This document shows positions 3,001 through 5,786 of a stretch of DNA of 5,786 nucleotides, piece after piece. A program made the position numbers. Numbering within the stretch: the stretch's first letter is position 1; every line of letters starts with the position of its first letter. The stretch is from a virus (Duplodnaviria; Heunggongvirae; Uroviricota; Caudoviricetes), in the IMG/VR virus record IMGVR_UViG_2657244940_000016. One strand, given 5' to 3'.

Positions 3001-5786
3001 AAGGGTGGTGTCCGTCACCCTGTGGGTGATGGTCCGGATATGTGTCTGCACCTGACAGAGGTCATCCAGATCATCGTCCCGTCGTACCATATCCCGGGCA
3101 GGGTTGAAGGCGTTGGCCGCCACCTCCACAGTCGGGGCCAGAATCGTGTAACCCGCCGCCTGCCGCCAGTTCAGTAACAGTGCAGTCATCATGATCCCGG
3201 CAGCCAGCGTGGACTTCGAGTTTTTCTTGGGGATAAGGATAAACACTTCCTTGATATGGCGAACACCGGTCTGCGCATCGTAGGAGCCAAACAGGGCCGC
3301 CACCAGGTCAAACACCCACGGTGCACAGGACTCCCCGAATGTCGGGCTACCCGGTGCATCCACAATTCGCAGTTGTTTAAAAATCGCCAGGGCATGTGCG
3401 GCCTCGTCCGGATAAATCGGATCCGGAATAATCGACAGCCCCTTTTTCAGGCGCTCTGCCCAGTCCGGGCAGGCTGTGCTCCATACAGGTATCATCCGTT
3501 GCCCTCATTATCGTTATTCACCACCAGTCGGGGTGGCGGTGGCACCGCAAAACGGTTAGCCGCTTTTTTCGCGGCATCACCTTTTGCCGATTTTTTCCCG
3601 GTATCCCCTTTTTTATGGTGCGTGAACTGCGCCAGACGCCAGGCCGCATCCAGTGCCAGTTTCGGATCAATGCAGAGGTTTTCCACCAGGATCCGCCCCA
3701 TGGCTTTCACCGGATCGGGAAGACCATCCTCCATATATTCAATACCAGGAGACATCACCGCGGACGGTGGCATCTCCGGATTGTTTTCGTCCGGCTGTGG
3801 TATTGCAGCCGCCTCACGACGACGGGGTTTATCCTCCTGCTCTGATTTTTTCTGCCGGTAAACAGGAACCTCATCCACCTCCACCGTCTCGCATTGTTTA
3901 CGGGCTATAAACGCAAGCACCTCCGGATCTTTTGCCAGCTGCGAGCCTTTAACCCTGGCGGTCTTCGCCGAATAACCGGCGGCAATGGCTGACGCTGTTT
4001 TGTTTTTCCCGGACATGAGCGCCAGCGCAAATTTTCGTTTTTGCGTTGTCAGCACAGCCTCCTCCCGGGTCCAGAACGCACTCAGCCGGGTATGGTTCAG
4101 CCCATTTTTCCCGGCGTCTCATGCCGCAAATGTTAACTGCTGCCTGGTTAACATTTTCTGAAAAAGCCAGTTAACATTTTTTTCGCGCAACTAAATGAAT
4201 AATAAAGATAAAAACCGCAAAAATGCCCGGACGGCCAGTTAACATGTTAACTGGCCTGAAACGGGAATTTTTTCTCTGCGTGAGAGGGGGCGCGGTGTCC
4301 AAAGCGATCGTTTTTTACGCCGGATGATCCCCCCCCCCGGGTCGGGTTACAGTCCGATGATGTCGTCCGCTCTGCCACTACCTCCGGACACCTCCGGCAG
4401 CGTCGGGTCCGGCATACCACCCGCCGCTTCACGAGCAGACTTTTGTCGATGGCATTCGGTACAGAGCGTCCAGAGATTCGTCTCCTCATTACCACCACCG
4501 AACTGAAGTGCAATTCGGTGATCGAGTTCACTGTCACAGAGGTCAACCACACGACCACAGATACAGCACTGCCCGGCGTCCCTCAGCCAGATATGACGCT
4601 TGAGGGAAACACGTGCACTGCCACTGACACGACGCTGCTCCCCCTTCAGAATATTCACCCGTCGGGTATTCAGTGTTTTGATTCTGCTCTGGAGTGTACG
4701 AAGCTGAGCCATGTAAAATCCCCGTCATATGGCAATCAGTAAAGGAAATAAATATGTCATCGAAAAACCGGACCCGCAGAACCACAACCCGCAATATCCG
4801 TTTCCCCAATCACATGATTGAACAGATCAGCATCGCCCTTGAGCATAAAGGGTCCGGTAACTTTTCAGCGTGGGTTATTGAAGCCTGCAGGAGAAGGCTG
4901 GCAACAGATGCAACGCATCTGCGCCCGGCCAGCATGAAAAATAACGAGAAATGAACGTTCGGTTACAGGAGCAGGTACCCACTGTCCTCCAACAATATTT
5001 CATCTTCATATCCGACGGAACAAGACTTACCCTGCCGGGATGTACAGAATAACAACAGAGTGATAATTAATTTCTGATGAAATAATCAGGGTGCAGAAGG
5101 ACTAAAGATAAACGTTTTCTTCACGCCTTTACACGGCCTGTCCTTCTCAAATCGCCATTTTGCCATCGCCTTTACAACCTGCTCATCAAACAAATGGTGC
5201 GGCTCTGAACGGATAAACTCAATTCGGGTGACAGTACCATCAGCACCAATATCAAACTTCACATCAACCCGTCCCTTTATATAATTTGCCGCTGCATAGG
5301 CCGGATATTGTGGTAATGCCTTAACCAACTGTCGGGGCATATCTGTTTTATGTTGCGTACAGCCCATAACCAGAGAAGACAACAAAATAATTAACGGAAG
5401 ATTTCTTTTCATTTTCATTCCCGGCACAGATAAGAATAAGTCTTATTCTAACAATGCCACCCTGTCGGTCATCAATCCTCTGTTTAATGGCAACGACAAT
5501 TATCCGACTTAAATCACAAATCAGACACATGACATAACAGAGCTTGCGAGGTAACACATCGTCCGGTTTCTTCCACCATCGCACCGGACCAGCGACCATG
5601 AGGGGACAACGCCGCGCTCCGTTAACGCGGTAAACCCCGGTGTGTATCGTTTTTGATTATCCCCGCACACTCGCGCAGAGGAGTCTCCCGGTCGGGCTGC
5701 GGTCTCTGTTAATGCAGGAATACGGCGACAATACCGCGCATGGATAATAAGGTCGCTCAACACACTGGCTGTAATGCAGCGGATAC

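Follow-up and report, generated by a model that had tools for sequence, protein, structure and literature searches.

Results

The TonB-like gene and its product

We analysed a stretch of 5,786 nucleotides from the IMG/VR virus record IMGVR_UViG_2657244940_000016 (Caudoviricetes). This whole stretch is called the window here, and its positions 431–5786 are 98.1% identical to an Escherichia coli prophage (L001). On the minus strand, between the lysis genes and the terminase of this lambdoid prophage, lies a small gene that RefSeq annotates as 'TonB family protein' and that we call the TonB-like gene (Table 1). From the RefSeq start (MKRNLPL), its open reading frame encodes a TonB_C lipoprotein of 108 amino acids; other in-frame starts are an ATG at 5418 and a GTG at 5427. 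Our data directly support the view that this product is an exported TonB receptor-binding domain, predicted to be lipid-anchored, without means of energisation.

The N-terminus of the window protein is a cleavable lipoprotein signal, and neither a transmembrane anchor nor a proline-rich spacer is present. Residues 1–18, MKRNLPLIILLSSLVMG followed by Cys, satisfy the lipobox rule (LVMG/C; PROSITE PS51257-type pattern with basic n-region and hydrophobic core), and Cys18 is invariant across a 35-member family alignment. The residue at +2 after this Cys is Thr in the window protein and T, S or A in relatives; Asp occurs there in no family member. Sorting of bacterial lipoproteins follows the residue at +2, and Thr at this position predicts outer-membrane sorting. 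The window protein is hence predicted to reside in the outer membrane as a lipoprotein. A tether of 7 residues (TQHKTDM) connects Cys18 with the TonB-like region, and with only 108 amino acids there is no room for a transmembrane anchor or a proline-rich spacer. The C-terminus, FIFSPSAP, has no hydrophobic tail.

Table 1. Positions of the TonB-like gene, its domains and its upstream elements in the window
Feature	Position	Strand	Basis or remark
TonB_C lipoprotein coding sequence	5086..5412	-	RefSeq WP_000828068.1 'TonB family protein'; open reading frame, annotation, Pfam and NCBIfam matches
Lipoprotein signal peptide MKRNLPLIILLSSLVMG and predicted lipid-modified Cys18	5359..5412	-	lipobox pattern
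TonB C-terminal domain, residues 26-104 = E. coli TonB 153-231	5101..5337	-	gapless alignment to PDB TonB chains, AlphaFold2, Foldseek
Shine-Dalgarno-like GGGA	5419..5422	-	6 nucleotides before ATG; AGGA/GGGA at matching place in phage 21 copy
Best 19-bp Fur consensus match GATAAGAATAAGTCTTATT, 13/19	5429..5447	+	positional counterpart of relatives' Fur boxes
Perfect 8-1-8 palindrome AGAATAAG-t-CTTATTCT	5433..5449		overlaps -10 element and predicted transcription start
Extended -10 element TGtTAGAAT	5445..5453	-	promoter scan; conserved in phage 21 and prophage L020
-35-like hexamer ATGACC (4/6), 16-nucleotide spacer	5467..5472	-	promoter scan; consensus match only

TonB C-terminal domain: sequence and fold

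Profile searches, which the original prediction had proposed as a check, identified the TonB_C domain above the cut-offs of both models (Pfam PF03544, 54.9 bits versus 24.6, E 1.3e-14; TIGR01352, 54.6 bits versus 27.1, E 1.1e-14). When all PDB sequences were searched with phmmer, TonB C-terminal domains were the sole matches (E ~1e-16). Residues 26–104 align without gaps to residues 153–231 of E. coli TonB, and 31 of the 79 positions are identical (39%). The NCBIfam equivalogs of TonB (PRK10819) score at most 74 bits against cut-offs of 265–448, and this match covers profile positions ~152–240 only.

Structure prediction gave a concordant result. The AlphaFold2 model built from the 35-member family alignment reached a predicted local distance difference test (pLDDT) score of 85.7 overall and 95–98 across the domain; a shallower alignment had given a pLDDT of 65. 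In Foldseek comparisons, the best PDB neighbours were all TonB, both from complexes with BtuB and FhuA (2gsk_B, template modelling (TM) score 0.91, root-mean-square deviation (rmsd) 1.1 Å; 2grx_C, TM 0.91, rmsd 1.2 Å) and in free form (1u07, rmsd 1.3 Å). The original prediction of a lipoprotein made of little beyond a TonB C-terminal domain, with no proline-rich spacer and no N-terminal energy-coupling anchor, is thus borne out: a lipobox, a 7-residue tether and a complete TonB_C domain make up the protein.

Most residues of TonB that have been tied to TonB-box contact or function (Q162, Y163, P164, F180, F202, W213 and F230) are unchanged in the window protein, in which Y36-P37 corresponds to the YP motif of TonB (Y163-P164). 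Substitutions comprise Y215 to Phe, Q160 to Leu and R166 to Tyr. A TonB carrying Q160L is functional and suppresses the defect of FhuA and colicin M mutants altered in the TonB box (PMC11658791). In addition, an N-terminal extended segment keeps its length and sequence throughout the family; its pattern is P-R/K-x-L-(4)-P-x-Y-P, and the corresponding part of TonB lies against the TonB box.

These residues bear on the idea that the TonB_C fold has been reused in an envelope lipoprotein unrelated to TonB boxes, which would bind peptidoglycan or another periplasmic or outer-membrane partner and serve envelope stabilisation or serum or stress resistance in the manner of Bor/Iss. Such a role would suit a small outer-membrane lipoprotein gene that adjoins bor/iss in phage 21-type prophages, and the specificity may have drifted in a family that is separate from genuine TonB in a neighbour-joining tree and is 39% identical to E. 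coli TonB; in the window protein, R166 is replaced. However, the YP motif and all five TonB aromatic positions are retained (Y215 as Phe), the N-terminal segment is conserved throughout the family, and Fur control in relatives (see below) points to iron biology. We consider this role distinctly unlikely.

A family of short TonB_C lipoproteins

An exhaustive search retrieved 4591 TonB_C proteins at E ≤0.001, and among the closest was a set of 100–135 amino acids that all carry lipoboxes. Family members in Klebsiella, Raoultella, Serratia, Erwinia and Pantoea are 34–52% identical to the window protein and share its length, lipobox, tether and domain. In a rough neighbour-joining tree made without bootstrap, the short lipoproteins group apart from genuine enterobacterial TonB domains. 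The window protein appears to be a member of a separate short-lipoprotein family distributed over Enterobacterales chromosomes, islands and prophages, and not a piece of host tonB. Membership in such a family formed no part of the original prediction. Recent capture of the 3′ end of host tonB was rejected on the position of the short lipoproteins in the same tree, which carries no bootstrap values.

Members of the family reside in prophages, in an integrase-bearing island and at plain chromosomal loci, the latter near lacZ-lacI (Raoultella and Klebsiella), beside dsbB-nhaB-fadR (Serratia) or between sugar operons (Erwinia). Across the loci compared, no conserved partner gene was found next to family members. 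Because contexts vary and no partner is conserved, the protein may be expected to work with host components. A gene for a DUF1440 membrane protein lies near the TonB_C lipoprotein gene in both the Raoultella chromosome (L005 6738-7301) and Klebsiella phage ST13-OXA48phi12.4 (L003 277-903), which may be a trace of cassette movement between chromosome and phage.

Between the two E. coli types, the window copy and the phage 21 copy, the ratio of non-synonymous to synonymous substitution rates (dN/dS) is 0.12 at a dS of 1.46. By these values, the gene is under purifying selection and so is maintained rather than decaying. Annotations such as 'partial tonB-like' and 'TonB fragment' would make the gene an inert remnant, a decaying fragment of captured host tonB, and the L001 carrier prophage shows degradation of its own: its portal gene is frameshifted and its tail module interrupted. 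The TonB-like gene in it is 100% conserved. In addition to the substitution rates, an inert remnant is contradicted by a reading frame, start and lipobox that are intact in relatives down to 34% identity, by the possession of its own signal peptide, which tonB lacks, by the separate grouping in the tree, by transcription of the homologue in prophage Perceval (see below) and by presence in 30% of complete E. coli genomes. Decay is hardly credible as an account of this gene, and the labels 'partial tonB' and 'TonB fragment' are misleading.

Promoter and expression

The extended -10 element upstream of the TonB-like gene has counterparts in phage 21 (TGTCAGAAT) and in prophage L020 (TGTTAGTAT). 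RNA-seq of E. coli LF82 showed that the 'TonB fragment' of prophage Perceval (LF82_160) is transcribed in the lysogen, 8-fold above the prophage background, and that the endolysin, Rz and terminase genes beside it are silent (PMC9928086). This Perceval gene is 72% identical to the window gene. Its level is moderate, with log2 fragments per kilobase per million of ~5–6.6 versus 8–11 for bor, and its log2 fold change between LB and macrophages is 0.26, against an increase of 7 log2 for bor (PMC9928086). The TonB-like gene can thus be called an expressed moron, at least for the phage 21 type, and the moron behaviour that had been predicted from the DNA is upheld by the promoter-like element and by the Perceval transcripts.

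The gene should also be reached from upstream: since the lysis genes precede it on the same strand, the late transcript should include it. No intrinsic terminator after the TonB-like gene was found in 4900–5786, and the 3′ flank folds no better than its shuffles.

This position is also where a lysis accessory might be sought. PHROGs labels the family 'Rz-like spanin' (phrog_1267), which the protein matches over its full length (E 7.7e-43), and an outer-membrane lipoprotein whose gene comes shortly after the lysis genes, on their strand, would suit an outer-membrane spanin subunit. However, an Rz gene with an embedded Rz1, a proline-rich lipoprotein, is already present in the prophage, and phage 21 has annotated i- and o-spanins besides its TonB-like gene. 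Moreover, the protein has a TonB C-terminal fold, no C-terminal membrane helix and no proline-rich character, the Perceval gene is transcribed in lysogens in which lysis genes are silent, and homologues occupy non-phage chromosomal loci. On the separate Rz/Rz1 pair, the globular TonB fold and the expression in lysogens, we reject the spanin function as highly improbable and take the PHROGs label as a family name only. The wrong label, filed under lysis, will propagate into phage annotations.

The palindrome and Fur boxes of relatives

A perfect 8-1-8 palindrome overlaps the -10 element and the predicted transcription start. Arms of at least 8 with a spacer of at most 3 occur in 0.5% of dinucleotide shuffles of the 148-nucleotide upstream region, and the whole window contains one other such palindrome. 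In phage 21-type copies, the right arm and 13 nucleotides are absent. An operator of the prophage's own repressor was rejected as an identity for this element: the immunity region has no match to the palindrome within 3 mismatches, and the prophage's own operators look like TTGTACC..GGTACAA.

Likeness to Fur boxes was scored by consensus matching to GATAATGATAATCATTATC (19-bp) or TGATAATnATTATCA (7-1-7), without a calibrated matrix. The window site reaches 13/19 and 9/14, respectively; at least 13/19 is reached by 5% of upstream shuffles and by 2.8% of background 120-nucleotide windows. The guanines of TGATAAT half-sites matter in Fur–DNA structures. At the window site, 3 of the 4 half-site positions equivalent to these guanines are changed. 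A second Fur-like pair lies at 5056–5090 between the convergent TonB-like and YlcI/YnfO genes (13/19; 7-1-7 score 11/14), with a perfect half-site TGATAAT at 5061–5067 and ATAATCA at 5082–5088 over the stop codon.

Among relatives, a Fur match of at least 14/19 (range 14–17/19) within ~50 nucleotides of the start codon was found at 11 of 18 loci, versus 0.47% of 1483 background windows. Perfect TGATAATTATTATCA is present in Raoultella lignicola, Klebsiella sp. and the L020 prophage (loci L008, L010 and L020), and Serratia loci reach 16–17/19; the score at locus L012 is 17/19. These consensus boxes stand at the same position in Klebsiella, Raoultella, Serratia, Erwinia and Pantoea relatives and in another prophage; when loci were aligned, the window palindrome occupied this position, just after the shared -10 element TGTTAG(T/A)AT.

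The Fur-box-like palindrome of the original prediction therefore stands as a perfect palindrome, and its likeness to Fur boxes, at 13/19, is little above chance. The iron control proposed with it divides in a similar way. Taken alone, Fur control of the window copy is only weakly indicated, given the 13/19 match, the missing right arm in phage 21-type copies and the lack of a macrophage response of the phage 21-type copy, which has no Fur box; relatives do carry consensus boxes at the same position. These alignments are most simply read as an ancestral cassette repressed by Fur whose operator decayed in E. coli lambdoid copies. With an operator that seems to have decayed, expression of the window copy is probably largely iron-independent.

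Fur boxes also bring in an opposite role for the protein, as an iron-uptake helper. The outer-membrane-tethered TonB-like domain would promote TonB-dependent transport, either as a docking site that brings TonB or periplasmic binding proteins such as FhuD and BtuF close to transporters or by keeping exposed TonB boxes in readiness, and would be prophage fitness or virulence cargo like sitABCD and iss. Consensus Fur boxes directly upstream of most family members, including a prophage copy, are as in iron-acquisition genes; chromosomal non-phage copies are conserved in Raoultella, Klebsiella, Serratia and Erwinia; and sitABCD and iss accompany the phage 21-type copy in prophages of extraintestinal pathogenic strains. 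A helper would also agree with the TonB C-terminal domain having been reported to bind FhuD and BtuF and to dimerise. Conversely, the Fur box is lost or weakened in E. coli phage copies, the phage 21-type copy shows no macrophage response when bor rises 7 log2, no adjoining partner gene is conserved, and the sole published experiment with a detached periplasmic TonB domain, as it is cited in PMC9841981, shows inhibition. On balance, we regard a helper function as unlikely, though less so than an envelope role.

Prophage context, composition and spread

The gene order on the minus strand is antiterminator Q ... holin, lysozyme, Rz with embedded Rz1, a small hypothetical gene, the TonB-like gene, HNH, terS, terL and capsid; the YlcI/YnfO gene on the plus strand is convergent with the TonB-like gene. 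The G+C content is 43.4% in the TonB-like gene and 42.2% in 4955–5560, versus 56.8% in phage bases 431–4700. The description of an AT-rich, moron-like cassette, at 43% against 57% and inserted between Rz/Rz1 and HNH-terS, accordingly holds.

The slot between lysis genes and terminase, which is the bor slot in phage 21 and PhiR47_2, holds homologues in at least 4 diverged phage backgrounds at 40–72% identity. At 72%, the homologue adjoins bor/iss in phage 21, Perceval, ev017 and the PhiR phages; others occur in a further prophage lineage with a Terminase_4 head module (45%) and in a Klebsiella phage (40%). Of 5426 complete E. coli genomes, 1616 contain a homologue (~30%; 414 of the window type and ~1200 of the phage 21 type), and 220 IMG/VR contigs encode a relative.

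Other cargo was observed in the carrier prophages. In phage 21 and icd-integrated phage 21-like prophages of extraintestinal pathogenic E. coli, the iron/manganese transporter genes sitABCD and iss/bor are in the same element as the TonB-like gene (L023 8968-12417; L025 5386-8835; L024 20791-21084). Porin genes annotated as ompC are also carried by prophages with the TonB-like gene (L024 23602-24684; L111 3853-5016), and Perceval expresses an NmpC porin moron as well (PMC9928086). Given these porins, several outer-membrane cargo genes seem to travel together. Phage 21 has a lambda-like J protein.

Upstream of the gene, the non-coding region 5500–5720 is 85–90% identical to phage 21 and PhiR47_2, while the adjoining gene is only ~74% identical; in phage 21, the counterpart of this region lies between bor and the TonB-like gene. 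RNA structure was not found on either strand of the conserved 5530–5720 (z-scores −0.64 and 0.03, with Rfam matches at chance level), and a structured RNA or small RNA upstream of the gene was rejected on these values. A small conserved upstream open reading frame, annotated in phage 21, was rejected because a 17-nucleotide indel breaks the common frame in the window.

The HNH endonuclease gene (4347–4712, minus strand) has a weak NCBIfam match to IscB, at 29 bits against a cut-off of 175, which reflects the shared HNH domain only. In HK97-like cos phages, an HNH gene is usually found beside the terminase. Between the HNH gene and terS lie a 24-bp perfect palindrome, GCCAGTTAACATGTTAACTGGC (4233–4256), and more (C)AGTTAACAT copies near 4131, 4146 and 4168. 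The repeats of 4120–4260 probably form the cos/terminase recognition region of an HK97-like packaging module. In terL, a 1-nucleotide deletion at 2078 relative to the 98%-identical L001 splits the gene into two frames (open reading frames 2068–3495 and 1835–2032), by either sequencing error or a defective prophage.

At the left end, positions 1–345 match an internal part of a kps capsule-biosynthesis gene, and the prophage starts abruptly at 431; the intervening 346–430 presumably represents the start of lepB, which it resembles (MANMFALILVIATLVTGILWCV). No complete E. coli genome has more than 49% of bases 1–700 in one place. The window is therefore chimeric at its left 430 bases, as a clone or assembly artefact, and the finding on the TonB-like gene is unaffected.

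Discussion

A proposed unenergised competitor for TonB boxes

From the exported, lipid-anchored domain described above we infer the localisation of the protein, its binding of TonB boxes and the physiological outcome. In the reading that we favour, the cassette would be a prophage moron that has its own promoter and is also on the late transcript. The short tether (~8–13 residues) would hold the TonB C-terminal domain against the periplasmic face of TonB-dependent transporters, and TonB boxes would be bound by strand addition to the last β-strand of the protein. Lacking an anchor coupled to ExbB/ExbD, the lipoprotein could bind TonB boxes and would be unable to pull those that it had bound, and hence would act as an unenergised competitor of TonB. 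This would lead to less TonB-dependent entry of phages (T1, phi80 and similar ones), group B colicins and microcins, at some cost to siderophore and vitamin B12 uptake.

We propose tentatively that such competitive occupation of TonB boxes gives partial exclusion of TonB-dependent phages, colicins and microcins, which we see as a real possibility short of a probability. A decoy role for the window protein is plausible because its fold is that of receptor-bound TonB, because contact residues are retained, and because TonB-dependent iron import is inhibited when the periplasmic TonB domain is overexpressed (Howard et al. 2001, J Bacteriol 183:5885, as cited in PMC9841981). Moreover, the periplasmic face of FhuA is the site of action of the phage lipoprotein Llp, and TonB binding excludes Llp (bioRxiv 10.64898/2026.03.26.714494).

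Several observations weigh against occupation of TonB boxes as the function. With strong Fur boxes at 11 of 18 family loci, the family would typically be turned on under iron starvation, an unexpected pattern for an inhibitor of iron uptake. The phage 21 type is widely carried by extraintestinal pathogenic strains that rely on TonB, and its expression is moderate, so that a strong general block of TonB at native levels would be unlikely. In addition, the window protein has Tyr in place of TonB R166, which we take to contact the FhuA plug, and among PADLOC defence models 0 families were matched at E up to 0.01. The Fur signal would be accommodated by a role as uptake helper, by a shield that is deployed when receptors are derepressed, or by selectivity for particular TonB boxes.

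The sitABCD genes that accompany the TonB-like gene in phage 21-type prophages are consistent with either compensation or a shared theme of iron. As an inner-membrane transporter, SitABCD could offset reduced TonB-dependent iron uptake. These considerations can be extended to the whole family. Outer-membrane TonB_C lipoproteins, ancestrally Fur-controlled and spread by lambdoid prophages to ~30% of complete E. coli genomes, would then be unenergised mimics that occupy TonB boxes generally, a broad-spectrum counterpart of Llp/Cor against TonB-dependent phages, group B colicins and siderophore-microcins, with SitABCD offsetting the iron cost in the phage 21 type. This general form is possible and, in our judgement, doubtful.

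The gene has long been annotated, and a published study reports its transcription in a lysogen; a decoy role is unreported as far as we found. Our literature search, which included a 2024 review of superinfection exclusion, found no functional study of the gene and no exclusion protein that mimics TonB.

Many coliphages, group B colicins, microcins and siderophore-conjugated antibiotics enter the cell through TonB-dependent transporters. If TonB boxes are occupied as proposed, a TonB mimic would help to determine, in a way so far unrecognised, the host range of phages and bacteriocins and possibly the susceptibility to Trojan-horse antibiotics. A mobile, natural mimic would then be present in about a third of complete E. 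coli genomes, including the iss/sitABCD prophages of extraintestinal pathogenic strains; it would offer a genetic handle on the regulation of TonB-box occupancy and extend the known exclusion strategies by mimicry of a host energy transducer. If the protein is a helper instead, a system under study for fifty years would gain a new accessory component. Furthermore, the consensus Fur boxes of relatives give a clear regulatory prediction, and two misleading database labels, 'TonB fragment' and 'Rz-like spanin', are corrected here.

Comparison with known systems

The closest structures are the C-terminal domains of E. coli and Salmonella TonB (PDB 1U07, 1XX3, 2GSK, 2GRX and 8RD6), which have the same fold (TM 0.88–0.91, rmsd 1.1–1.3 Å). 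Like TonB, the window protein keeps the YP motif, 4 of 5 aromatics (Y215 being Phe) and the last strand, the one with which the TonB box pairs in TonB. Unlike TonB, it has a lipoprotein signal and no membrane anchor or proline-rich spacer, and so no coupling to ExbB/ExbD. It also differs in its tail after the last strand, which is 4 residues shorter and of unrelated sequence, in the residues at positions 160 and 166 (Leu and Tyr), and in its score of 74 bits against an NCBIfam TonB equivalog cut-off of 315. The exported periplasmic TonB fragments of Howard et al. (2001, as cited in PMC9841981) are likewise a detached receptor-binding domain in the periplasm and serve as the model for a decoy. 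By that citation, however, those fragments were soluble laboratory constructs of TonB itself at high level, whereas the window protein is a natural, diverged and predicted lipid-anchored paralogue at native expression.

True relatives are the short 'TonB family protein' lipoproteins of Klebsiella, Raoultella, Serratia, Erwinia and Pantoea, many of them chromosomal or island-borne, and most have the consensus Fur box that is absent from the window copy. Lambda Bor/Iss is likewise a small outer-membrane lipoprotein moron between lysis genes and cos/terminase, and adjoins the TonB-like gene in phage 21-type prophages; it differs in its unrelated sequence, its opposite strand and its strong macrophage response.

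The closest functional analogues are Llp of T5 and Cor of phi80, N15 and HK022, which are likewise small phage outer-membrane lipoproteins. Llp overlaps the TonB-binding surface of FhuA, for which it is specific, and acts allosterically; Cor inactivates FhuA (bioRxiv 10.64898/2026.03.26.714494). The window protein has no sequence or fold relationship to either: Pfam gives TonB_C only, and a search of BFVD with the model found no significant viral structural neighbour. In contrast to the FhuA-targeting Llp and Cor, a TonB mimic would presumably engage TonB boxes generally. The window protein is a member of the TonB_C domain family, and is not TonB, not Llp/Cor and not a spanin. If it does act as a decoy, it would represent a new variant of the strategy in which phage outer-membrane lipoproteins are directed against a TonB-dependent transporter.

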